A stretch of DNA of 64,000 nt. It comes from a virus. Positions 3,545 to 63,514 of this stretch are shown here, piece by piece. Below the pieces are notes generated by a model. It did no database searches. It was not told the DNA's origin and worked only from the letters and a program-made list of their open reading frames with translations. Position 1 is the first letter of the stretch. Every line of letters starts with the position of its first letter. Both the position numbers and the translations under genes were made by a program. The stretch lies in IMG/VR virus record IMGVR_UViG_3300045988_089273, one strand, 5' to 3'.

Positions 3545-3616
3545 TCGGAAAGGCAGGAATCGAACCTGCGGCACATTGCTTACAAGGCCATTGCTCTACC
3601 ACTGAGCTACATTCCG
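3545..3616 (-). tRNA. tRNA-Thr (anticodon UGU)
   Basis: Hand-folded 72-nt cloverleaf. Acceptor CGGAATG/CTTTCCG has 1 mismatch. D arm is GCTC-AGTGGTA-GAGC, anticodon loop CTTGTAA, T arm GCAGG-TTCGATT-CCTGC. No encoded CCA. One mismatch in the anticodon stem. Confidence 0.8.
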
Positions 3617-3735
3617 TACCGCTTGTCACGGCCAGTTAAAAAACTGAGTTGATTTTCACCTTTTTCGCTATAGCGCAAATCCACCTGAGACATAGACCAC
3701 CTGTATACAAACAGCTTAACTCTAAGCGGATTAAA

Positions 3736-3804
3736 GCGGAACGCCCGGAATCGAACCGGAGACCAGAGCGCGACTCTGTCAGTTTTCCACTAGCGTACAT
3801 TCCA
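3736..3804 (-). tRNA. non-canonical tRNA-like gene (possible anticodon CGC; may be a pseudo-tRNA)
   Basis: Good T arm (TCCGG-TTCGATT-CCGGG) and a 7-bp acceptor with two G-U pairs. The D stem is weak and the variable loop is only 2 nt. The anticodon arm folds either as 4 bp plus loop GTCGCGC or as 5 bp plus a 5-nt loop. Confidence 0.4.
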
Positions 3805-4134
3805 CATAACCCGGAACCCCCGGGTTAGCAATATGTTTATCGTGTTATGCTTTCCACTAGGCTGTTTTCAACCGTGCCAGCCCCACGGAGTTGTTTCGGA
3901 TTTGGATATTGATGTCTTTGTGTATAGCGACGAAACCTTTTATATGTCTCTTGAAAACTTCCTGTCCTCAACGTGCACCTATTGACGACAATTTAACTCA
4001 GAGACTGTGCCGAACGGGGAATTATCTTCATTGAACAGGCTGTGCCGTTACACACCTTTCATAAAAATAATCCACATACACTCATTCAGCAGTTTTTTCT
4101 GTCCATAAAACGGATAGACAGTATATGGAAGAAA

Positions 4135-4207
4135 TGGAAACTACAGGACTCGAACCTGTGACTTGTCGGTTATGAGCCGACCGTTCTGCCAACTGAACTA
4201 AGTTTCC
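4135..4207 (-). tRNA. tRNA with CAU anticodon (Met, or Ile2 if lysidine-modified)
   Basis: Perfect 73-nt cloverleaf: GGAAACT TA GTTC AGTTGGCA GAAC G GTCGG CTCATAA CCGAC AAGTC ACAGG TTCGAGT CCTGT AGTTTCC A. Confidence 0.9.
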
Positions 4208-4409
4208 TAAGCAGAGGGTTATTGCAGTTCAAGAGTAACTTCCTCTGCTGTTGCGATTCATGCCCTCACAGTCGCAACAAAGGGTCTAAATGCTGTTCTG
4301 CATAAGCAGAGTCCATCCGGGGCGTTTGAAGCCCCTTTAATCATCCCCGTTGGGATAGATGGAACCAATTCGGAGGGGAACTATATCATGGCTAAACAAT
4401 ATAGTCCGA

Positions 4410-4481
4410 CTGGGCTAGCGGGATTCGAACCCGCGAATACAGCAGTCAAAGTACTGTGCCTTACCGCTTGGCGATAGCCCA
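4410..4481 (-). tRNA. tRNA-Gln (anticodon UUG)
   Basis: 72-nt cloverleaf. Acceptor TGGGCTA/TAGCCCA has the U1-A72 pair typical of tRNA-Gln. Anticodon loop CTTTGAC, T arm GCGGG-TTCGAAT-CCCGC. Confidence 0.85.
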
Positions 4482-20150: not shown

Positions 20151-20280
20151 AATCTTCACACTCCTTCACAGATTCATAACTGCCCATCTCATCACATCTA
20201 CACTGGCAGGAATCCTGTTTAGTACAGCAGATGCAGCACTCTGTTTCGCCGTCCGGACAGTCTAATTTACATCTTCCCAT
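20137..20280 (-). CDS. Cys-rich microprotein (47 aa, 10 Cys)
   Basis: Below the ORF-track cutoff. ATG 20280 immediately follows the TAA of the upstream gene. Translation MGRCKLDCPDGETECCICCTKQDSCQCRCDEMGSYESVKECEDYETD. Confidence 0.45.
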   Translation of the reverse strand: MGRCKLDCPDGETECCICCTKQDSCQCRCDEMGSYESVKECEDYETD

Positions 20281-20634
20281 TTAGTCCTCCTTGTATGGTT
20301 CTGGCAACGGTGTCCATGCAGTTACAGGCAATCTGAATTCTACAGGAGTCTCAATTTGCCCTGGAACTACAAAGGCTCCAATTCCGTCTCTTATTACTTC
20401 ATATCTACCAATTGCCGGGATAAAGCCTTTAAGCAGTACAGTAACATCCTTGCCCGGCTCTGGCAGTTTCTTTTCGACTGGAATCCAATCGTTTTCATTT
20501 TCATCCAGTTCTAAGTCATCTTGAAGCTGTTCTATCATTTCTAGAAAATCTCTGGCAGTAACCAACTTGTGTCTGTTTACAATATCTTGTATCCAATCAT
20601 GATAACTGGACAATCTGTCTTTGATGTGGCTCAT
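20281..20634 (-). CDS. DUF551-like phage protein
   Basis: WIPVEKKLPEPGKDVTVLL...AWTPLPEPYKED is the typical DUF551 pattern. Confidence 0.6.
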   Translation of the reverse strand: MSHIKDRLSSYHDWIQDIVNRHKLVTARDFLEMIEQLQDDLELDENENDWIPVEKKLPEPGKDVTVLLKGFIPAIGRYEVIRDGIGAFVVPGQIETPVEFRLPVTAWTPLPEPYKED

Positions 20635-26445: not shown

Positions 26446-26457
26446 TCGGTGCTTTTT

Positions 26458-26721
26458 TTAATTTTCCCTGTATGGTTCTGGGTACGGCATCCATGCCACT
26501 ACTTTCCCGCCCAGTTTTAATAAATCATTCTTCCATTTACCATCTACTGTATGCGCGCTTTGAACAAACAAACTCTGCTTAAGCAAAATTGTAACCAAAA
26601 CATCTTCGGAAATTTTCTCGAACATTGCTTCTTTCCATTTACTTGTCCCTTTAAACTTAGCAAACATTGAATCTCTTTCTTCTGGCATTTTCTCACTTAC
26701 TGGAATCCATCTATTTTTCAT
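26458..26721 (-). CDS. DUF551-like phage protein (second copy)
   Basis: WIPVSEKMPEERD...VVAWMPYPEPYREN. Confidence 0.6.
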   Translation of the reverse strand: MKNRWIPVSEKMPEERDSMFAKFKGTSKWKEAMFEKISEDVLVTILLKQSLFVQSAHTVDGKWKNDLLKLGGKVVAWMPYPEPYREN

Positions 26722-26733
26722 TTCTTTCTCCTT

Positions 26734-43125: not shown

Positions 43126-46100
43126 CTATTCGTAAGTAAAATACAATGTATCTTTTCGGTCTGTTCCTGCGGCTACCAGAGCGTCATAATCAGCTTTTTT
43201 GATTCGCTTCACACACCTTAATTGTGCCTTTTTTAGTTCGGTTGAAGAACTTCCAGAACCGTCCGTAAAATCATCAATCGTTGCAATTCCAGATTCCGTT
43301 CCGTCTGTAAATTCTGCATAACTAATGGTCGGCATTTCAGACCTTGTTCTATTGATCGTAGATGTGATTTCTGGCGTGTTCTTGCCTAATTGCTGATTGT
43401 TTCCGTTATACGGTGAATTGTTGGCAGTGTATGTGTCAATAAGCCCTGTAATGCCTAATTTCAGTGTCCTACTCATGATATAGCTATGAATCACCCACTG
43501 TATTGCAGAACCGTCCTCAGAAAGCTTGGAATGCGTCATTTCCACGGTTTGTCCAACCATATTGAACGGATTCCCTTGTACTTCCACAGAGTATCCCTGT
43601 GCCCGATAATACTGCTTTTTGATAATGTCCTCTGCGACAGTTCCATAACAGATTGCATACTTCGGTTTTGTTCGGGTGTAGTCCCCGTATTCGTTAGCAT
43701 CGTAAGCATAATTCAACCAGTCTTGATTGCCTACGAAAAAGCTGTTACGATTGTAGAATACGTTCCTTTCGTATGCGTCTTGTGCGGTTGGTTCGCCAGA
43801 TGTAAATATTTCACCGGATGGGTCTGGGTCGGTGTAAACGTAGTTAAAAAACCACACTCTTCCCTCTGTTGCCTTGAAACTTTTGAATCTGTCAAGATGT
43901 ACCGCAGACTCATAAAAATCGAATGTTTCAACGCCGGAAACTGTCGTGCCGCGGTGTTTGCAGTTCTTTTTAAGCTTTTTATACTCAAATTTTCCATCCC
44001 TATTCATCCAGCCAAAAACATTGTTTTGCAGACATAAATCTTCCAGTATATTAGCCACATTCATTTCAGAAGAATTGGCAGTATTTGGCACATATGCGCT
44101 GTCATATTTGAGTTTTACATCGACTTGCTCAATGCCAAGATACTTAAATAAAGCATCTCTGAACTGCTTCTGTGTAAACACCATTTGCTTGTCTTTTGTG
44201 TTGTTTTTATACCACCATGCAATGTCAGTATTCCGCAATTTATACAGATAATCGTATGCCACAATGGTACGAACAAATGAATTTGCGCCACGTTCTCCTG
44301 TCGCAATTTCACCAGTAAATATCTTAATTTCTGTCCCTTTACATTCAAGATAAACCTCGATTTTCCCAGATGGATAAGTAGTTTCATCTGTCCCGATAAA
44401 CTGTTGATGATAACACTTGAATGTGATCTGGTTGGATATGCAGCCGCCAAAAATGAAGTATGCTTTATTGCACAATGATTCCTGCAATGACAGCGTATTG
44501 GATTGAATATTATCGTTTGTCAAGTCCTCAAATTCGCCATTTATCCAATGCACTTTCACGTTGATTGGATCGGTGTTATCTTCAAATGGGTTCTTTCCGT
44601 CCTTGGTCACTTTGATCTCAAATTCATCATATCCAACGAACGTTTCTATTCCTCCAATTTCAGTTTGATAAGACACTGTGATGGTTTTTGTTCCGGCTTT
44701 AGAACTGTCAAATCCAGAGACGGTGTAATCCGTGATTTCTTTCTCTGTATTATCTGTCCGCATAGCCGCAACAACCAACCCTGTCGGGTCAAATGTTTCG
44801 CCTACTCTGTAATAAGTTTTCTCCGGATAATGTGTGATGCGGATTCCTTGCAGTTCATACACAAGAACTTTGAATGTAGCGGTATGGTTTTTATAGGCTA
44901 CTGTGATTTCTTTTTCTCCGATTGATGAGCTGTCAAGTTCAGAGACAGTAAAACCAGATGTTATCGTTTCAGACGTTCCATCAGTGTATTTTACTAAAAC
45001 TGTCAATCCGGTAGAATCAAGTGTATTACCTACAAGGTATTCTTGCTTTGTGGGTGGTGTTTTAATTTCTATTCCGGTTATATCAACAACCAGGATCGAG
45101 AAATCTACGGTTTTCTCATCGAATGTAACCGTTACAGTTTTGCTTCCATATGCTGACATATCCGGGCTTGACAGGGTATATCCTGTTACTTGTTCGGATG
45201 TGTTGTCATTGTAGTATACAGTAATTACAAGTCCTGTGCTGTCAAAAGTTTCACCTACGAAATATCTGGCTTTGGTTGGCATATGAGTGGCTTCAAGCCT
45301 GGTTACTCGAATCAACCATGTGATTGTGCCTGTTGCTCCCCATGGGGAACCGGAGATTTCATTTGTTTTTTTATTCAGTGTGACGTTTGTTGTAGCTTGC
45401 GCAACAAAGGCGTCTTCACCGATGGTAGTCACACTCGCAGGAACAGAAACATTGACAAGCCGAGTGTTAGAAAATGCTGCTTTTCCAATAGTTTGAACGC
45501 CATTTGGAATCTCTAAATTTTTGAGTGAAGTCCCGGAAAATGCGCTTTCTCCAATGTTTGTAACACTTGCAGGAATTTTAATCTCTGTGATTTTTCCACA
45601 GTTTGAAAAACATAATGGTGGTATTTCTGTTATCCCGCTTTCAATGGTAACTGATTTTAAAGTATCGAAGCACGGTGAAAAATGCGATTTCCCGATAAAT
45701 TTAACTGCGCTTTTTAACGTAAGGTTTTCGAGTACAGAGAGTGAAATTGTACCGCCTGTTCCATCAATGGTTCCGCCTCGAATTATCAAACTCTTGCAAC
45801 TTGGAATATAGATTCCAGACGAACTAATCATGGAATCTGTGCTTCCAATTTCTACATTATTTATTTTGGCACCTGCAAAAGCACCAGATGATAGCAAATT
45901 TAATGATAATGGGAAAACAACGCTATCCAACGATTGAAATCCGTTTAACGTTCCACCTTGAATTTCTTGCAAGCCTTCATGAAAAACAATCTCTGTTAGG
46001 TTGGGGCAAGAACTGAACGTACCACCTTGAATAGCTTTAAGACTCGCAGGAAACTCTAACTTAGTTCCTAAAAAAGTAGTAAAGTTTCCACCAGCAATAC

Positions 46101-47592
46101 TTGTAATTGTGTTTCCTAATTCGATACATGTTAAACTTTCAAATTGGTATCCGAATCCACCCGTGATTTCAGTGATTCCGTCACTAAAAGTAATCTTTAC
46201 ACATCTTTTGAACAAACTATCAGGAACTATAATATTTTCCGAATTTTCATGCAAAATTTTAATTTTCCCAGTTCCAGAAATGGAAAGCGTATTTGTATCA
46301 AGATTAAATTCGGCTGTTACATCTTCGTAATTCGGCGAACCGATATGTACTAAAAAAGAATCATATACATTAACTTTTATCGTATCGTCTGTTATACCAA
46401 AATAATTAACGTTAATAGTAACTGTGCCAGCCTCTGTAAGAACTTTATTTTCAACCGTAAAGCCACTGGTTACTTTTTCCGAACCATCCGAATATACGAC
46501 AACTATATAACTCACTGCTATATCTGTAGTATCCCCTACGAAATACGAAGCCCCAACATAACTCATTCCATTTATTTCTTCCGGCTGCATAATAGTAACT
46601 TCAAATGTACAAGTGAAACTGCCGTAATGAGCTGTGATTTCACTTTGTTTTGGAGAACTGCTGTCAAAACCAGAATACGTACAGTCTTTTGTGACATCTA
46701 TAGTATTCCCATCGCTTGCCGTTGCAGCAACCACAATGCCCGTAGAATCAAATTCTTTTCCGATGTGGTAATTTACCTTGGTTGGCATTGTAGTAACGGA
46801 TATGGTGGTAATAGAGGCTTCTGAGACGGTAATCTCAAACGTTGTGGTTTTGCCGGATACAGTAACGGTTATGGTCTTCGTACCTGCGGAGCTGCTATCA
46901 AAACCCGATAATTCGTAATTTGTGACACTGACCGTTTCTCCTGTGCTTGTTGTTCCAGATATTTCAAGTCCAGTTTTATCAAACAGCTCTTTCTGATAAT
47001 ATGTGGTCTTATCCGGCATTTTGGAAACAGTTATGCTAGCAATTACTACATCAGAATATTTTTCATAAGTAATCTCCTGCGACACACCTGCGTTCTTTAC
47101 CAGAATTGAAATCGGTACCGTAGAAGATACGGAAATATTCAGGCTTGTTGTGGTTTCCCCGTCGGTAATTGACGATGTGCCAGTGTATGAACTGCTTGTA
47201 GGCCTCTGGACAACATTGACAAAAAGAGTCTGTCCCTCTATCAAAAATACTTCATATTTCAGTGCGTACGATGAGGCTGTGCTTGAATAATGCACATAGC
47301 CCTCAACTCTGATTTTAAGGAATCTTTTTCCTGATGTGAGTGTCCCCTCTTGACGGTAAACATAATAAATCACACCATCCCTGCGCCAGATTTTGAGCTG
47401 TTCGGCGTTTTGCCCGAATCCGATAAAATTGTTTCCAGAAACATATATGGTACTGGCAGTCTTGCCCGCGTAAGTAAACCAGTCAACGCCCGTGACACTA
47501 ACTACATCATCATCGTATTCCGTGTTATTAACAACAGCAGTCATCCCGGCTGTCGTATTCAATAAACTATCAAAAGATACTGTATCTGCCAT
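43126..47592 (-). CDS. large multidomain tail protein (Tal-like C-terminal region, six Ig-like repeats, BspA-type leucine-rich repeats)
   Basis: Six ~75-aa repeats of the form Y..G..FD.TGL.V...Y.DG....VT.Y..SGFDSS..G.K.ITV. A central LRR block reads IGESAFSGTSLKNLEIPNGVQTIGKAAFSNTRLVNVSVPASVTTIGEDAF. Start at ATG 47592 with a GGGAGG RBS. Confidence 0.8.
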   Translation of the reverse strand: MADTVSFDSLLNTTAGMTAVVNNTEYDDDVVSVTGVDWFTYAGKTASTIYVSGNNFIGFGQNAEQLKIWRRDGVIYYVYRQEGTLTSGKRFLKIRVEGYVHYSSTASSYALKYEVFLIEGQTLFVNVVQRPTSSSYTGTSSITDGETTTSLNISVSSTVPISILVKNAGVSQEITYEKYSDVVIASITVSKMPDKTTYYQKELFDKTGLEISGTTSTGETVSVTNYELSGFDSSSAGTKTITVTVSGKTTTFEITVSEASITTISVTTMPTKVNYHIGKEFDSTGIVVAATASDGNTIDVTKDCTYSGFDSSSPKQSEITAHYGSFTCTFEVTIMQPEEINGMSYVGASYFVGDTTDIAVSYIVVVYSDGSEKVTSGFTVENKVLTEAGTVTINVNYFGITDDTIKVNVYDSFLVHIGSPNYEDVTAEFNLDTNTLSISGTGKIKILHENSENIIVPDSLFKRCVKITFSDGITEITGGFGYQFESLTCIELGNTITSIAGGNFTTFLGTKLEFPASLKAIQGGTFSSCPNLTEIVFHEGLQEIQGGTLNGFQSLDSVVFPLSLNLLSSGAFAGAKINNVEIGSTDSMISSSGIYIPSCKSLIIRGGTIDGTGGTISLSVLENLTLKSAVKFIGKSHFSPCFDTLKSVTIESGITEIPPLCFSNCGKITEIKIPASVTNIGESAFSGTSLKNLEIPNGVQTIGKAAFSNTRLVNVSVPASVTTIGEDAFVAQATTNVTLNKKTNEISGSPWGATGTITWLIRVTRLEATHMPTKARYFVGETFDSTGLVITVYYNDNTSEQVTGYTLSSPDMSAYGSKTVTVTFDEKTVDFSILVVDITGIEIKTPPTKQEYLVGNTLDSTGLTVLVKYTDGTSETITSGFTVSELDSSSIGEKEITVAYKNHTATFKVLVYELQGIRITHYPEKTYYRVGETFDPTGLVVAAMRTDNTEKEITDYTVSGFDSSKAGTKTITVSYQTEIGGIETFVGYDEFEIKVTKDGKNPFEDNTDPINVKVHWINGEFEDLTNDNIQSNTLSLQESLCNKAYFIFGGCISNQITFKCYHQQFIGTDETTYPSGKIEVYLECKGTEIKIFTGEIATGERGANSFVRTIVAYDYLYKLRNTDIAWWYKNNTKDKQMVFTQKQFRDALFKYLGIEQVDVKLKYDSAYVPNTANSSEMNVANILEDLCLQNNVFGWMNRDGKFEYKKLKKNCKHRGTTVSGVETFDFYESAVHLDRFKSFKATEGRVWFFNYVYTDPDPSGEIFTSGEPTAQDAYERNVFYNRNSFFVGNQDWLNYAYDANEYGDYTRTKPKYAICYGTVAEDIIKKQYYRAQGYSVEVQGNPFNMVGQTVEMTHSKLSEDGSAIQWVIHSYIMSRTLKLGITGLIDTYTANNSPYNGNNQQLGKNTPEITSTINRTRSEMPTISYAEFTDGTESGIATIDDFTDGSGSSSTELKKAQLRCVKRIKKADYDALVAAGTDRKDTLYFTYE

Positions 47593-47655
47593 AATCATCC
47601 TCCCGTCTATAAAATAAAAGAGCACATGAGCTGTGACACCCATGCACTCTGGTTG

Positions 47656-56267: not shown

Positions 56268-56993
56268 TCACCCTGCCTGTTCTAACATATTCTGGGTCTG
56301 GGTTTGAACAAATTCTTTTATCTGTTGATAGCCCCAGCCGCAATTAATAAGGCTACTCACAAGCATCTCCATTTCTTGAATCTTTTCCAAATCTTCACCT
56401 GTGAAAAAATCTCGAAGATTTTCTTTTGCTTTTACACCATAATCTTTTTCGAGTTCTTTTGCTGTCTTTCCGAACAAATTACGATAAATTAAATTTGTGT
56501 AATTGGGATAGGCAAACTTTTTATGCGGGCTATCATTAACTTTCATTTTGATGGTATCTGTGAGTATATGCCGAATGACAACACCTTTGTCACGTTCGAT
56601 TTGCCATTGTTGACGTTCCGTAAGGATTCTCTTTAATTCAGCCTCCATTTTATTAAAGGCATTAATGTATTTGATTTTCCAGCATAAAGCTTTTTCACCA
56701 CTAAATCCCATAGCCAATAGTGAAAACCCATCTCTTGTCACAAGATACTCTGTGTATTCACGATTATTCGCTCCAACATAGGAAGTTTTTATGAAATAAT
56801 CAGAAAGGGGGATATCTCCCCTTTGAGAAATCTGTGCCGCAAGTCCCAAATGTTTAACTTTACCTTCGGCGTCAACTTGCCCTTCAATGGTTCTGATTAC
56901 CTCTTTGTGTTCTTTCTCAAAAGATTCCGCAATTTTTCTCGATGTAGTAAGTATTTTTTCTTCATATCTTTTACCAACAATTTCTACCAGCAT
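56268..56993 (-). CDS. phage regulatory protein Rha
   Basis: ILTTSRKIAESFEKEHKEVIRTIEG...YLVTRDGFSLLAMGFSGEKALCWKIKYINAFNKME. Start at ATG 56993 with AAGGAG 8 nt upstream. Confidence 0.8.
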   Translation of the reverse strand: MLVEIVGKRYEEKILTTSRKIAESFEKEHKEVIRTIEGQVDAEGKVKHLGLAAQISQRGDIPLSDYFIKTSYVGANNREYTEYLVTRDGFSLLAMGFSGEKALCWKIKYINAFNKMEAELKRILTERQQWQIERDKGVVIRHILTDTIKMKVNDSPHKKFAYPNYTNLIYRNLFGKTAKELEKDYGVKAKENLRDFFTGEDLEKIQEMEMLVSSLINCGWGYQQIKEFVQTQTQNMLEQAG

Positions 56994-57216
56994 AAATTCA
57001 ATCTCCTTTTCTGATTTATTTTGGTATATAAAAGCACCCACCGTTCAGGTAGATGCTTTTATATGTTACAGTATATCATTTTTAATAAATATGATTCCAT
57101 ATGATTGCATAGTATATTCGTGTTTCTTTATGAACTGAATACTTCTTTTGCAATTTTTCTGATGTTTTGCATGATTTTCACGCTTGCCTTATAAACCGGC
57201 ATGGTGGCTTCAGTGC

Positions 57217-58101
57217 TTATTCTCTTCCTAAATTTCTCATCTGCAAATTACCTTTATAAAATAAATCATCTATTCCCCTTATTCCTCTATAATACCTTCC
57301 AATAACTTTATTGTATGGCACATCGTATATTTCACACCATTCTGAAAGTGATTTATTATCCCCACCTATATCAAGTCTAACGGTATTTCTTCTATTACGG
57401 GTTTGTAATTTTCTGTCAATCCAACAACAATTTTCGGGACAATAATTCCCGTTCACATCTTTTCTTTCGATAGAGAGGTTTTTATTTGGCTTAAACCCTG
57501 TTTCATCAGCCCATTTTGAAAAATTTCGTATGTCTTTCCACTCTTCGCAAACTTTAATACCACGTCCACCATAATCATTATAATGTTTATTATGTGGATT
57601 GCCGCATCTATTAATCATTGCATTCCATATGCTGTAAACAGGATGGTGAGTCAATTCATGGTGATTTGTTATGCCTAAATTAATAATATCTTGTTTTTTC
57701 TTGTCGCATCCGCAAGAAGTAATAACTTTAAGAGTATCGCTTCTTACCGATTTTGTTGTTCCACACTCACATCTTACAATCCAATAAGATTTTTTATTAA
57801 TAATTTTATCTAATTTCAACACTGTTAATTTTCCGAATTTCTTACCGGAAATATCTTTTACATTTTCACCTTTTGTAAATTGTCCTTTCTTATTTCTGCA
57901 TTTAGAATCCATGCATCCGCAATTATCAATCTTTCCATGCACAAGCCTTGTAGAGCTTATGATTTTAGTATTCCCACAATCACATTTGCACATCCACATA
58001 GCATGCTTCCCGATACCTGCAACTTCTTCTGATTTAATTCTGTAAACGGCAGTTAATTTCCCGAATCTCTCACCAGCAAGATTAGGCGTAGGTCTTGGCA
58101 T
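57217..58101 (-). CDS. HNH-like homing-endonuclease-type DNA-binding protein
   Basis: Two GKLT(A/V)...W.C.C.CG....SCGC modules. Then YSIWNAMINRCGNPHNKHYNDYGGRGIKVCEEW and SIERKDVNGNYCPENCCW, as in phage HNH_3/AP2-type endonucleases. Confidence 0.5.
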   Translation of the reverse strand: MPRPTPNLAGERFGKLTAVYRIKSEEVAGIGKHAMWMCKCDCGNTKIISSTRLVHGKIDNCGCMDSKCRNKKGQFTKGENVKDISGKKFGKLTVLKLDKIINKKSYWIVRCECGTTKSVRSDTLKVITSCGCDKKKQDIINLGITNHHELTHHPVYSIWNAMINRCGNPHNKHYNDYGGRGIKVCEEWKDIRNFSKWADETGFKPNKNLSIERKDVNGNYCPENCCWIDRKLQTRNRRNTVRLDIGGDNKSLSEWCEIYDVPYNKVIGRYYRGIRGIDDLFYKGNLQMRNLGRE

Positions 58102-58951: not shown

Positions 58952-59330
58952 CTCCTATATACTTGATGCCATATCGTGCCACATTTCCTTTCTGGGTATC
59001 AAGAATCTTTTTCAGGCGGTAGTCTGGCGGTACTGTAGGTTCTCCATCTTCGCCTAAGATAAGTTCGCCTGCTTCGGTCAGTTCCGGCTTGCAGTCTATC
59101 CAGAATACATCGGCGGTCTGTGGTTTGAAGTTGCGGCCAAAGTTCGTGATGTATCTGTCGTAGTCCGGGATATAACCGGCGGATAATTCCTCTGGCGTTC
59201 CGGCAGTCGCAGATACGGATAGGTGATATATTTCTGGCTTTTGGTACGTTTTGATTGTATCTATCCCGTCAAGTCCTTCGGTTACTCTTGACCAATACAC
59301 TGTCTGTTTTTGACGTTTTAATCCTCTCAT
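58932..59330 (-). CDS. head-tail connector-type protein (132 aa)
   Basis: Start at ATG 59330 (MRGLKRQKQ...), with an ATGA overlap with the upstream small ORF. Confidence 0.5.
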   Translation of the reverse strand: MRGLKRQKQTVYWSRVTEGLDGIDTIKTYQKPEIYHLSVSATAGTPEELSAGYIPDYDRYITNFGRNFKPQTADVFWIDCKPELTEAGELILGEDGEPTVPPDYRLKKILDTQKGNVARYGIKYIGDGSDGE

Positions 59331-59491
59331 TTCGATTCCTCCCAAAATAATTCCTCGTCATCTGCTTCTGCATATTTCTGGCATTCTGCCCGAAGCTTTT
59401 CTATTTTTCCATTGGTTTCTTCTGATCTGATTCCCAATTGAAGATTAAAAATCACAGACCACAGGGCAGATATTATTTCAAGTTTTCTCAT
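59327..59491 (-). CDS. small hypothetical protein (54 aa)
   Basis: Below the ORF-track cutoff. Translation MRKLEIISALWSVIFNLQLGIRSEETNGKIEKLRAECQKYAEADDEELFWEESK. Overlapping stop/start at both ends. Confidence 0.4.
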   Translation of the reverse strand: MRKLEIISALWSVIFNLQLGIRSEETNGKIEKLRAECQKYAEADDEELFWEESK

Positions 59492-59609
59492 GTTCATCTA
59501 AAATGTATTGTTTTTCTTCATCGGTCAAAGCTTTCATGCTCTTGATTTTTGTGGAAGTGATTTTCCCGGATTTGTACAGCCGTTTTAAGCTCTCAACTAA
59601 AGTTCTCAT
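59478..59609 (-). CDS. small hypothetical protein (43 aa)
   Basis: ATGA overlap with the upstream stop. Translation MRTLVESLKRLYKSGKITSTKIKSMKALTDEEKQYILDEHEKT. Confidence 0.4.
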   Translation of the reverse strand: MRTLVESLKRLYKSGKITSTKIKSMKALTDEEKQYILDEHEKT

Positions 59610-59923
59610 GATATCACCCCTTCCATAATCAACTGTTCTGTGTATGCATCAACCATAGCGTTTGCATACTCTGTCATTTCTGCAGTAGGTTCTTCGTCTC
59701 CTGCGTAATCAAGATATTCAGATGGATTTTGAGATATTTCCTCTTGCGTGTGCTTAAATGTTCGAAATATGTTTCCGTCATATTCATACATTTCTTCAGA
59801 TTTTCCGTCTTGATTTTCAACTGTGACTTTCCTTTCATTCTGGCAGATTACAACATCTATTCCCTTTTCAAGAGGATACGTTGAAACTTCAAGCTGTGGC
59901 AAATTGAATCTCATTGTTTGCAT
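59606..59923 (-). CDS. acidic hypothetical protein (105 aa)
   Basis: Start at ATG 59923 (MQTMRFNL...) with AAAGGAGA 7 nt upstream. It overlaps the RT 3' end by 35 nt. Confidence 0.55.
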   Translation of the reverse strand: MQTMRFNLPQLEVSTYPLEKGIDVVICQNERKVTVENQDGKSEEMYEYDGNIFRTFKHTQEEISQNPSEYLDYAGDEEPTAEMTEYANAMVDAYTEQLIMEGVIS

Positions 59924-61079
59924 GTGTAAGTCTCCTTTCAGTTTTGGATATTTTCGATTCACAACGTTTTAAAATATAGGGTATATCGTATTTCTTTCTG
60001 AAATGTTTGGTATTTGAGTTTTTAATTGCACCATATCTTCCGATAAAGCTTTTAGCTGTCTGGTAATCAGCATCTTTGCCTTTACGAAGCTGCGTCCGCG
60101 CTTTCTTTGCAGTTCTGCGGAATCTGATAAAATTAGAAGAACGGAGTGTAAGACTTTTTCTTGAAACTTTTCGGCCAAGGATATCAATATATTGGTTTCT
60201 AAGGTCAATAAAATTAAGTTTATTCTTTAATTTCAGCCCCAGAAACTGTTCTATATATTCTTTAAATTTCTTTACCGTATATTTTAAATCTTTCAGACTT
60301 CTAAACAAAATCAGAATATCATCCATTTGAAACAATACATGGGATACTGCATTTATGGTTTTGCAGACACCATTCTTGCATTTTCTGGTTTTTAAAATCA
60401 TCTCACTTGCAAAATGATAGGCATAACTCATATAATAATTGGCCAGATACTGACTGAGATAAGAGCCAATGGAAAGGCCACCTAAAAATGTATCAATCAG
60501 AAAGAACACCAAATGCAAAATTCCAGGATTATCAACATCTCTGGACAAAAGATTTTTTAACTTCTTTTTGGGAATTGTCTCATAATATTGCTTTACATCA
60601 TCCTGCCAAGCCCAACGTATGCTATGGTCGCTAAGCCATCTTTTAATTGCTTTTGCTCCAAAATCATTTCCTTTCTTCTTTAACGCACCGCATTGATAAA
60701 AGCCTAGCTTTTTACGAAACAGTTCTTCCATAGCATATACGGCAATGTAATCATAAATTTGCTGTTTGATATCCTGTATTCCAATGTTTCTGATTTTTCC
60801 GTTGCATTTGTCAGTTTGCTTTCTATATTGGATTGGTTTTACGATATACTTTTTATGGATAATCTCCTGCTGAATGCCGTCAATTACTGTGTTAATGAGT
60901 CCATTCATCATACGGAAGTCTTTGCAGATCTTTTTTATAATGTCAAAAGGTACACCCGAATATTCAGAAAACATCCGAACAACGTCCCCCCTGTCCATTT
61001 TCCCATGCAGACAATCTCTAACTGCTTTTTCAATCAATCGCCTATCTGTTATGTCTATTCTTTTACAGCATCTTTTCAT
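59889..61079 (-). CDS. DGR-type reverse transcriptase
   Basis: RT motifs seen are IRNIGIQDIKQQIYDYIA (1/2), YYETIPKKKL (3), GLSIGSYLSQYLANYYM (4, carrying the DGR-specific IGxxxSQ), FQMDDILI (5) and GLKLK / IDILGRKV (6/7). Lies 228 nt downstream of the TR. Confidence 0.9.
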   Translation of the reverse strand: MKRCCKRIDITDRRLIEKAVRDCLHGKMDRGDVVRMFSEYSGVPFDIIKKICKDFRMMNGLINTVIDGIQQEIIHKKYIVKPIQYRKQTDKCNGKIRNIGIQDIKQQIYDYIAVYAMEELFRKKLGFYQCGALKKKGNDFGAKAIKRWLSDHSIRWAWQDDVKQYYETIPKKKLKNLLSRDVDNPGILHLVFFLIDTFLGGLSIGSYLSQYLANYYMSYAYHFASEMILKTRKCKNGVCKTINAVSHVLFQMDDILILFRSLKDLKYTVKKFKEYIEQFLGLKLKNKLNFIDLRNQYIDILGRKVSRKSLTLRSSNFIRFRRTAKKARTQLRKGKDADYQTAKSFIGRYGAIKNSNTKHFRKKYDIPYILKRCESKISKTERRLTHANNEIQFATA

Positions 61080-61306
61080 ATTTTTAAATTCCTTTAAGGG
61101 TTTATTTTACCGTTTAAATTCCGAGGGACGTTCGGATTTCTACTAGCCCCAGTTTATGCCTTACGCATAAACTACCAGTTTCCTCGTCAGGCTACCGGTT
61201 CCCTTTTTGTTTCCTATTTAAGTACCTTATACGGTAATGAAATTTAATCCACGAAATGCCACACAAAAGTACCAGTGTACTAAATTATCTCGTCAAATTT
61301 ATAAAA

Positions 61307-61403
61307 GCAGAGGGCGTAGTTCCAGTTCGCGTTCGAAACGTCGTTCCTGAGATTCGCGTACGAAAAGCCCGCATTCGACTCGTTCCTCAGATTACCGCGC
61401 CGC
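61307..61403 (-). repeat. DGR template repeat (TR)
   Basis: 97 nt, non-coding. Aligns gap-free with 61498..61594. It carries 22 adenines on the minus strand, 14 of them substituted in the VR. Confidence 0.85.
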
Positions 61404-61436
61404 CTGTGTGACAAGTCCTATATACTATTATTTTAT

Positions 61437-61454
61437 AGAGGGGCATCCCCCTCT
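61437..61454 (-). promoter_or_regulatory. GC-rich hairpin downstream of the VR (DGR target-recognition-type element)
   Basis: AGAGGGG (61437..61443) pairs with CCCCTCT (61448..61454) around a 4-nt loop. It lies 43 nt 3' of the VR end on the coding strand, with no T run after it. Confidence 0.55.
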
Positions 61455-61491
61455 TTTGCTACGCAAAATTCACCCCTAAAAGGTTCGGAAT

Positions 61492-63003
61492 TTAAACGCA
61501 GAGGGCGAAGTGCCAGTACGCGTTCGAAACGCCGTTCCCGAGACCCGCGCACGAAAAGCCCGCAGACGACTCGTCCCACAGACAACCGCGCCGCAATGCT
61601 TCTCTCCAACCAGTTCCCGTACCTCCATTATATTCTCTGTCTCCAACTCCTACGGAATCTCCTGCGCCTTTAGTCCGCAATGTAATTACACCGGTTTTTA
61701 AATCAATGTTAATATCTCCAATCCAACAATCATCTGAAGAACCCAAGTCAACCGTTACAACTTTAGTCCATCCAGTCCCGGTTGCTGACCATGCGGATTT
61801 TCCACGCACATAATAATCGACTGTGCTTGCAGATGTTTTGTTCCACAATTCATTCATGGATATATAATAAGCACCAATCATATCTTCGATGCCACCGAGT
61901 TTGAATGGATAAATTCCGTCATTCGCAATATATCCGTCCGTGCCTTGAACATTATCTGTTGTTCCAGAATGCAATGGCATCGAGCTGATATAAGTATCTG
62001 TTGTAATTGCCATTCCTGTCTTTTCAACATATACGCGACTATTTGCTGTACCCTCAATAACTTCTATTGCAGTTACTCTGACTTTATCTGCAATATTTCT
62101 CATCCAGGTAGCGCCACGTTCAAGATTATCCGTGTGCCCTGTTGCATCTCCTATGGATACTGTTAAGCTAACTTTGAAATTATTCGCCTGAGCCGTTGGA
62201 AGAACTACATAATTTACATTTGTGTCTGCCTGTGCAACTTTATATTGGAAATTGTATCTAGTGCAGCCTTGGAATATCTGTTGACTGTTTTTAGTTGCAT
62301 ACTTAATCCACAACATGCACAGTAAGTAAGCAGTACGTTCAGAACCGGAACCGTGGTATCCAGTTCCTTTTTTCTGCAATTCAGTGTTTCCTGACTCTGC
62401 TGAAACAAAATTGTAAATTGCATTACCGGAAGAAGAATACAGCAAACCGTCAATTTGCCCTGCGTAATATTTTGTTAAAATCCCGTACCCGAGTTCTTCA
62501 TTGCACCACGGAGTCACAGTTGTGCACTCAAGTTCTGGATGTGGTTTTGTTGCAAAATGCACAATATAATAAGTGTCAAATTCCTGTATTCCCCAATAGG
62601 TCAACGGAACCATAACGCCTACATCTACTTTTCCAGTACGTTTAAAGCCATTTCCGCCATCAATTGCTACGGGGATTTTATTTTCACTGTCATCAATAAT
62701 GAAATTGCAATCCATTGCGCTGAATGCACTTCGGTTCGCAAAATCATCACGATTTTTTGACGTTTCTGTGGAAGGAGTTGATTCCATTCCAACAGAATCA
62801 TTCATTTTTTCACCCTTTGGATTCGTACTAGTGCCATACCAATAAAATTTTGTGGAAAAAACTTCATCTGTTGCCATTTTTTGGTAAAAGTTTTTCCAAT
62901 CAAATTTTGATACATCCGTTACCATTGTTTTTACTACTTTAAGAAGTGATAAAATTTCTTGTGAAGTTTTTTCCATTGCCACATCTACTGACACCTGTGC
63001 CAT
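61492..63003 (-). CDS. DGR target protein (503 aa) with C-terminal variable, C-type-lectin-fold-like region
   Basis: The C-terminus ...WREALRRGCLWDESSAGFSCAGLGNGVSNAYWHFALCV is encoded by the VR. No family recognised for the N-terminal 460 aa. Confidence 0.85.
   Translation of the reverse strand: MAQVSVDVAMEKTSQEILSLLKVVKTMVTDVSKFDWKNFYQKMATDEVFSTKFYWYGTSTNPKGEKMNDSVGMESTPSTETSKNRDDFANRSAFSAMDCNFIIDDSENKIPVAIDGGNGFKRTGKVDVGVMVPLTYWGIQEFDTYYIVHFATKPHPELECTTVTPWCNEELGYGILTKYYAGQIDGLLYSSSGNAIYNFVSAESGNTELQKKGTGYHGSGSERTAYLLCMLWIKYATKNSQQIFQGCTRYNFQYKVAQADTNVNYVVLPTAQANNFKVSLTVSIGDATGHTDNLERGATWMRNIADKVRVTAIEVIEGTANSRVYVEKTGMAITTDTYISSMPLHSGTTDNVQGTDGYIANDGIYPFKLGGIEDMIGAYYISMNELWNKTSASTVDYYVRGKSAWSATGTGWTKVVTVDLGSSDDCWIGDINIDLKTGVITLRTKGAGDSVGVGDREYNGGTGTGWREALRRGCLWDESSAGFSCAGLGNGVSNAYWHFALCV
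61498..61594 (-). repeat. DGR variable repeat (VR), last 32 full codons of the target gene
   Basis: 83/97 identical to the TR. All 14 differences fall at TR adenines (coding strand). Confidence 0.85.
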
Positions 63004-63016
63004 TTAATACATCCTC

Positions 63017-63514
63017 CTATTTTCCATCGTCATAAGTTACTCTAAGTCCGCCAGCCTCGTTGACACTGAGTGTAATTCCTTGCCCGTTGGCTTTCTTTTT
63101 CAGTTCTTCCTGGAAATCAATATTTGAAACATATCCAGAATCATTTTGCAATTCACTTGTTTTACTTGGAATTTTCGAATCAGCCGGTAACGCACCAACT
63201 TCATCAGCTGTATATGTTGGCTTGTTCTGCTGCTTTGCCCAATCCGCCAATTCGCTTGACTTAATGTAAAGCGACATATCAATCGGGGCTCCCATGGTAT
63301 CCCATACTACCCCATTCCACGCAACGTTCATTCCTGCTTCGCCGTAGGCCGACTTAGACTCGATATTGTACATATCACCGATATCCGGGTTTAACGGAAG
63401 TAAATCAGCGGTTGCAACTGTACCACGGTAAATAATAGGCGTTTTTATTTTTGCTTCCATATCGGAAATCTGGCGTTTTAATATTGCATATACTTTCTTT
63501 GCTGTTAATGCCAT
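63017..63514 (-). CDS. hypothetical structural-module protein (165 aa)
   Basis: Start at ATG 63514 (MALTAKKVYA...) with AAGGAG 6 nt upstream. Confidence 0.6.
   Translation of the reverse strand: MALTAKKVYAILKRQISDMEAKIKTPIIYRGTVATADLLPLNPDIGDMYNIESKSAYGEAGMNVAWNGVVWDTMGAPIDMSLYIKSSELADWAKQQNKPTYTADEVGALPADSKIPSKTSELQNDSGYVSNIDFQEELKKKANGQGITLSVNEAGGLRVTYDDGK

Follow-up and report, generated by a model that had tools for sequence, protein, structure and literature searches.

A compact diversity-generating retroelement of target-TR-RT architecture carried by a temperate tailed phage from the human gut

The viral DNA IMGVR_UViG_3300045988_089273, a stretch of 64,000 nucleotides (nt) analysed here in full and termed the window, almost certainly carries a diversity-generating retroelement (DGR) of the accessory-less type, named after the order of its target gene, template repeat (TR) and reverse transcriptase (RT) gene. 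The window is the genome segment of a temperate tailed phage of the human gut, and encodes an integrase, RecT, a methylase, Rha, a 1983-aa tape measure protein, an endolysin and three tRNAs. All parts of the module lie on the minus strand, in the order of a 503-aa target gene that ends in the variable repeat (VR), 88 nt, the TR, a 222-nt spacer, the RT gene and two small open reading frames (ORFs). A DGR as such is not rare, and the present one is a known kind of system in a compact form that lacks Avd. A first-pass annotation of the window had read the repeat pair and the neighboring RT gene as the signature of mutagenic retrohoming. This reading is supported by the pattern of adenine substitutions, the clade of the RT, the predicted fold of the target, the initiation of mutagenic homing (IMH) region and the turnover of the VR among related phages, which together argue for a real and probably active DGR.

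On the minus strand, which is the coding strand, the TR (61307-61403) and the VR (61498-61594) form a gap-free alignment with a fixed offset of 191 nt, in which 83 of 97 positions are identical, exactly as first annotated. Within these 97 nt, all 14 mismatches sit at coding-strand adenines of the TR (T on the plus strand), comprising seven A>G, five A>T and two A>C changes; another eight of the 22 TR adenines are the same in the VR and no other position differs, so that re-alignment bears out the annotated pattern for this core. The annotated limits of the repeat needed an extension, however, as the full homology spans 102 nt (61302-61403 and 61493-61594), 5 nt more than the core, and includes a sole non-adenine difference at 61306/61497, with T in the TR and G in the VR on the coding strand. 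This T/G difference marks the boundary between the IMH of the VR and its TR counterpart IMH*. The sequence GCCCTCTGC is common to both and is followed by G in the VR or T in the TR, and then by divergence; the same layout, a GC-rich common 3' end and then VR- or TR-specific sequence, recurs in 26 lineages. The 102-nt repeat has 23 adenines and 15 mismatches, 14 of which are at adenines, with a hypergeometric P of 1.9e-10. The TR and VR also form the longest direct repeat family in the window (family D1). Such a pair might alternatively have come from an ordinary tandem-like duplication of the gene 3' end, followed by chance or biased divergence, with an unrelated group II intron or retron RT nearby. 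The restriction of 14/14 differences to the adenines of one strand (P about 2e-10) speaks against this alternative, whose chance of being right we consider negligible.

Further analysis of the TR indicated how the DGR would diversify its target. The 22 adenines occupy codon positions 1 (10 adenines) and 2 (12 adenines) but never position 3, and form eight AAY codons, in agreement with the AAY-rich reading frame described in the first-pass annotation, whose quoted translations also agree with the ORF list. Among all 22 adenines, none can be substituted to create a stop codon. The resulting repertoire amounts to 1.8e13 DNA and 5.9e12 protein variants, with 14 codons affected. With N placed at each adenine, the TR pattern matches only the TR and the VR in the window, even allowing three mismatches, and none of 100 shuffles matches; the window therefore has a single VR and no second target.

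The 396-aa ORF downstream of the TR is best assigned, by its sequence, to the DGR clade of RTs. It matches phrog_1423 "reverse transcriptase" at 9e-54, and a profile built from nine relatives has the Bordetella phage bRT as its best PDB hit (8ub7, 6.6e-30), compared to 5.7e-19 for a group II intron RT. The segment IGSYLSQ corresponds to the DGR RT signature motif [I/V/L]GxxxSQ (PMC7826257) and is invariant across the RT alignment. The position of the RT downstream of the TR had been annotated correctly, but the distance of 228 nt had not, since 227 nt of non-coding sequence lie between 61307 and the RT start codon (61079). The explanation by duplication beside an unrelated RT draws some support from the matches of this enzyme to group II intron and retron RTs, yet these matches are weaker: the profile favors bRT by 11 orders of magnitude, the motif is IGxxxSQ rather than QGxxxSP, and TIGR04416 gives 52 bits against a cut-off of 300. 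In addition, an Rfam search over 59000-63500, with the spacer and the element downstream of the VR included, returned no match at E values up to 1, and thus no intron or retron RNA family.

The target protein matches phrog_17147 at 1e-63, and no Pfam domain was found in its 503 residues. Its AlphaFold2 model has a pLDDT of 92.8, and structural similarity search against the PDB gave TaqVP (PDB 5vf4), the variable protein of a Thermus aquaticus DGR, as the best solved match, with a probability of 1.0. In BFVD, the model resembles phage tail (collar) fiber proteins, tail fibers of crAss-like phages and a TvpA-like protein. The resemblance to TaqVP, the TvpA-like protein and the tail fiber targets comes with a sequence identity of only 12-13% and TM-scores of 0.35-0.48 over the whole chain, and the N-terminal two thirds of these proteins are unlike that of the window's target. 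By this model, the VR is located at the C-terminal end of a target with a predicted variation-tolerant, C-type-lectin-like fold. The 90%-identity cluster of the target has 229 members. All of the 15 members examined possess the VR, in 14 distinct versions (P0127 is identical to P0133), each of which differs from that of the window. Across members of the cluster, the hypervariable residues are 474-499, and single adenine-templated codons encode up to ten or more different residues.

Related RTs were found in four GenBank gut-virome records and 52 IMG/VR loci. Nearly all of these 56 loci have the VR, about 100 nt, the TR, about 220 nt and the RT in this order. Although the TR sequence varies from locus to locus, the mismatches fall entirely, or almost entirely, on TR adenines. 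The adenine pattern has thus recurred independently in dozens of loci with different TRs, and these comparative data refute the chance duplication of a gene end beside an unrelated RT. More distant members of the RT family, at 30-49% identity, lie on contigs of metagenome-assembled genomes (MAGs) of Bacillota (Lachnospiraceae and Eubacteriales), Collinsella and Bifidobacterium; about 35 of these bacterial contigs share the compact layout, the target family and the adenine-only differences. Among named phages, megablast searches with other parts of the window found no close cultured relative, so that the host is only loosely indicated.

The turnover of the VR was compared among ten phages with RTs 71-97% identical to that of the window, most of them 94-97%. 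Their TRs hardly differ, whereas their VRs vary in every one of the 22 adenine columns, with a mean entropy of 1.37 bits, but in just 5 of the 75 non-adenine columns. Three of these five columns correspond to polymorphisms of the TR (e.g. C/T/A at one site) that are repeated in the VR of the same phage, as copying from TR to VR predicts. Judged from these alignments, the comparison shows a transfer of information from TR to VR and a turnover of the VR across related phages.

A second alternative is that the DGR has decayed and become inactive, with the repeat pair and the RT left as relics and the VR fixed. Relatives that have truncated RT genes along with extra non-adenine mismatches, the eroded TRs of two loci (L012 and L056), and the unusual catalytic box and weak Pfam score of the window's RT could all be read in this way. 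By contrast, the RT of the window is full-length and 94-97% identical to those of phages whose VRs differ at adenines only; its TR retains 22/22 adenines, its VR has no non-adenine change in 97 nt, and the helices and motifs of the spacer are intact. We therefore regard a decayed element as very unlikely, and return to an active DGR.

Some observations weigh against a fully functional DGR and should be set beside it. The catalytic box of the RT is QMDD instead of the usual YxDD, although the Asp-Asp pair is kept, and the RT scores 22.8 bits against Pfam RVT_1, under the cut-off of 29.6. The QMDD box is present in all relatives down to 67% identity (67-97%), whereas more distant ones have YMDD; as the VRs of the QMDD sub-clade are visibly diversified, the QMDD enzyme seems to work, and such a box in an evidently active sub-clade, as far as alignments tell, is mildly notable. 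Activity in the window's own phage is something we infer from its relatives. Finally, Avd was not found: among the neighboring ORFs at 54-64 kb, neither Avd nor another known accessory factor was matched by Pfam, PHROG or NCBIfam. To our knowledge, only one DGR has been studied biochemically, and that DGR requires Avd. Apart from Avd and a canonical YxDD box, every feature by which a DGR is recognized in sequence appears to be present.

The absence of Avd has precedents. According to Wu et al. 2018 (Nucleic Acids Research (NAR) 46:11, PMC5758913), Avd is present in 74% of DGRs and absent from about a quarter, one RT lineage is entirely without avd, and 75/372 DGRs have architecture A (A1), defined as target-TR-RT with no accessory gene. 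The element of the window matches the accessory-less architecture A, which has the same gene order and likewise lacks avd, HRDC, MSL and CH1; the conserved non-coding elements described below are not mentioned in the consulted passages of the survey. DGRs of target-TR-RT architecture are, by the same account, common in gut phages and have already been surveyed. The coordinates of the module are listed in Table 1.

Table 1. Features of the DGR module, listed along the coding strand from the target gene to the small ORFs
Feature	Coordinates	Strand	Remarks
Target gene, tail-fiber-like variable protein, 503 aa	61492-63003	minus	Last 33 codons carry the VR
VR	61498-61594	minus	Residues 471-502 of the 503-aa target; TR homology continues to 61493
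VR 3' flank, IMH-specific part including the last codons and stop, 14 nt	61485-61498	minus	Complements spacer 61111-61124
Post-VR element	61437-61476	minus	In coding-strand order: GGGGTGAATT (61476-61467), hairpin a (61468-61454), hairpin b (61454-61437)
Segment upstream of the TR, GGACTTGTCACAC, 13 nt	61406-61418	minus	Pairs with spacer 61253-61264 (helix 1)
TR, non-coding	61302-61403	minus	22 adenines in 61307-61403; near-invariant in close relatives
Spacer, structured part of the DGR RNA	61080-61301	minus	222 nt, from TR to RT
Spacer strand of the TR-bracketing duplex, GTGTGGCATTTC	61253-61264	minus	Covariation
Spacer hairpins	~61223-61252, 61175-61200, 61151-61173	minus	Lineage alignment, consensus structure
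Conserved GGGG-CUAGUAG...CCGAA-CCC hairpin	61125-61150	minus	Spacer alignment
Spacer segment, putative primer strand, TCGGAATTTAAACG	61111-61124	minus	Better complement of the VR flank than of the TR flank
RT, 396 aa	59889-61079	minus	IGSYLSQ; QMDD box at 60318-60329
Two small ORFs after the RT	59478-59962	minus	Acidic 118 aa (probably 105 aa, start M14) and 43 aa

For the analysis of the DGR RNA, 14 lineages were aligned over the region preceding the TR, the TR 3' end and the spacer. The RNAalifold consensus contains 28 pairs, 20 of which have compensatory changes. Together with a helix of five pairs between the TR flank and the spacer that was added by hand, 33 pairs were counted, with both sides changed in 22. 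The fraction of paired cells is 91.9%, compared to 72.5% in shuffled alignments and 37-56% when the partners are slid, and the covariation score of 0.689 is reached by none of 500 shuffles (0.31 shuffled). The strongest is helix 1, which is formed by the segment upstream of the TR and its spacer strand, and has 10 pairs, eight of them with compensatory changes, and 97.9% of cells paired. By analogy, helix 1 corresponds to the avd:Sp duplex that brackets the TR in the BPP-1 ribonucleoprotein.

Close to its RT-proximal end, the spacer contains a putative primer strand that is an exact 14-nt complement of the VR 3' flank, which none of 300 shuffles reproduces. All five bases of its core pentamer (AAACG or AAUCG) are complementary to the VR flank in 14/14 lineages, with one compensatory change included, whereas only 3-4 of the five pairs form with the TR flank in each lineage; the totals are 70/70 for the VR and 51/70 for the TR. 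A symmetric comparison covered 40 lineage-collapsed DGRs. At the first VR/TR differences, the spacer is complementary to the VR base in 42 cases and to the TR base in 10, but at the later ones to the TR base in 51 and to the VR base in 32 (Fisher 1.3e-6). The segment thus appears to be a mosaic, in which VR-specific bases lie next to the common GC run and TR-specific bases lie further out. A comparison of duplex energies of the spacer with the two flanks was uninformative, because the VR flank is GC-richer.

This complementarity was considered as a novelty and rejected as such, since it holds in BPP-1 as well. There, spacer positions 47-56 extend to the known priming nucleotide A56, and their reverse complement is identical to the VR IMH but has mismatches to the TR IMH*. 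The same relation was noted by Naorem et al. 2017, who proposed that the RNA primer linked to the cDNA pairs with the IMH DNA and sets the direction of transfer. As it has already been described, we count the complementarity as support for the known model rather than as a discovery; as judged from the aligned spacers and flanks, it supports an extension of the BPP-1 homing model to a distant clade that lacks Avd.

The VR is followed by an inverted repeat that folds into two hairpins (61437-61468), the second of which, hairpin b, reads AGAGGGG-GATG-CCCCTCT. The whole post-VR element is kept across the RT clade, with stems that vary in sequence. According to Wu et al. 2018 (PMC5758913), inverted repeats follow the VR in 34% of DGRs. 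An exact-pattern scan of IMG/VR for the element found at least 119 loci. Among the matches listed, 96 of the 102 with enough flank are closely preceded by a VR-like copy and followed by a TR-like copy, and the RT is present in 88 of the 92 loci with room for it. Hairpin a occurs in 82 distinct sequences among the listed matches, with a mean of -6.6 kcal/mol compared to -1.4 kcal/mol after shuffling. RNAalifold on the MAFFT alignment of the element did not recover hairpin a, which is evident from the folds of individual sequences against shuffles. The presence of a well-defined post-VR element, together with comparative data that seem to favor an RNA-guided choice of the VR, is mildly notable.

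In two loci, L003 (5150-5659; MT835469) and L070 (a Lachnoclostridium MAG contig), the cassette contains a gene for a 169-aa RNase H (PF00075, 5.9e-12), inserted between the post-VR element and the TR at the place that Avd has in BPP-1. This RNase H might process the RNA-cDNA hybrid. Despite the insertion, the post-VR element remains beside the VR in both loci, and is therefore part either of the target site or of the target transcript's end.

The two small ORFs after the RT gene are also part of the surroundings of the module. By tblastn synteny, they accompany the target-TR-RT module even at ~36-41% RT identity, and in L002 they stay with the module although it is placed elsewhere relative to orf80/orf174. 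Neither has a Pfam or PHROG match, and a search for XkdX-type annotations was also empty; the homologues of the 118-aa ORF come from close relatives only and are 105 aa long. They could be fiber assembly factors or DGR accessory factors, and their membership of the module is uncertain.

Based on the sequence and on published BPP-1 experiments, we propose the following mechanism. The minus strand would be transcribed through the TR and the 222-nt spacer, and the spacer would fold such that one of its segments pairs just upstream of the TR, while another anneals to the 3' flank of the TR and serves the RT as primer for the cDNA. The enzyme would copy the ~100-nt TR faithfully, except that any base may be placed opposite the 22 adenines. 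With spacer RNA still attached, the cDNA would find the 3' end of the VR because the primer segment of the spacer complements the VR-specific flank, possibly with help from the two post-VR hairpins, and would then replace the VR. The outcome would be up to ~6e12 variants, at 14 codons, of the predicted C-terminal lectin-like tip of a tail-fiber-like protein, which presumably alters phage binding.

Compared to the prototype DGR of phage BPP-1 (mtd-avd-TR-brt), the element of the window shows the same adenine-specific transfer from TR to VR at the C-terminal end of a receptor-binding-type protein, and its RT, which has the [I/V/L]GxxxSQ motif, belongs to the same clade. In both, the TR is followed by a structured spacer that forms a duplex with sequence upstream of the TR and includes a primer segment fitting the VR IMH better than the TR IMH*, and the VR is followed by a GC-rich inverted repeat, to which the post-VR element is likened. 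Despite this common architecture, they differ in several respects. The window has no Avd gene and only 88 nt between VR and TR; its spacer is ~222 nt long, compared to ~140 in BPP-1; and its RT has QMDD in place of YMDD. The signal after the VR consists of GGGGUGA and two hairpins ~20-60 nt from the VR, whereas BPP-1 has a single hairpin immediately downstream of the VR. No sequence similarity links the target to Mtd of BPP-1.

Several relatives carry signs of decay. The RT genes of L033, L036, L041, L043, L044, L047 and L053-L055 are shortened by stop codons to 84-179 aa, and several of these loci have 2-3 non-adenine mismatches between TR and VR, as expected of decaying DGRs. Mean non-adenine mismatches are 1.8 with a truncated RT and 0.29 otherwise, a comparison that includes few independent events. 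In the TRs of L012 (~3677-3778) and L056 (~3694-3783), adenines have been lost where the VR of the same locus has the same substituted base, e.g. GAGGAACGAG to GTGGGACGGG in L012. This looks like a conversion from VR to TR or a self-targeting of the TR.

Other parts of the window provide further context. A 1505-aa protein encoded directly after the tape measure gene (43126-47643, minus strand) has five Big_3 Ig-like domains and BspA-type leucine-rich repeats, and is a second candidate host-binding protein that stands outside the diversification by the DGR. An HNH endonuclease gene (294 aa, phrog_374, 1e-77) and a gene for a Rha-family regulator (PF09669, 1e-26), located at 56268-58101 on the minus strand, separate the DGR module from the tail genes and break the structural block. 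Two segments 6.2 kb apart, 20280-20502 and 26457-26724 (repeat families D3 and D10), share 70-80% identity and a common order, which suggests a pair of diverged paralogous genes. The three tRNA genes, Thr-TGT, Met-CAT and Gln-TTG, form a cluster at 3545-4481 on the minus strand.

The retention, in a clade that lacks Avd, of a covarying duplex that brackets the TR and of a primer segment matched to the VR flank backs the BPP-1 homing model in a distant lineage. A more far-reaching and rather doubtful possibility is that RNA replaces Avd, such that the post-VR element of the clade (GGGGUGA and two hairpins) and the VR-matching segment of the spacer would make up a targeting system for retrohoming encoded in RNA and DNA. 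This proposal covers the DGRs of Bacillota and Actinomycetota gut phages that form the present, large clade without Avd; if it is true, the choice of target might be reprogrammable through a few nucleotides of the spacer and the flank. The compact cassette of three parts, namely the target end, the TR with its spacer, and the RT, might also be easier to engineer. For the phage itself, the element would allow the trial of up to ~6e12 versions of a probable receptor-binding tip, which bears on host range in the human gut.

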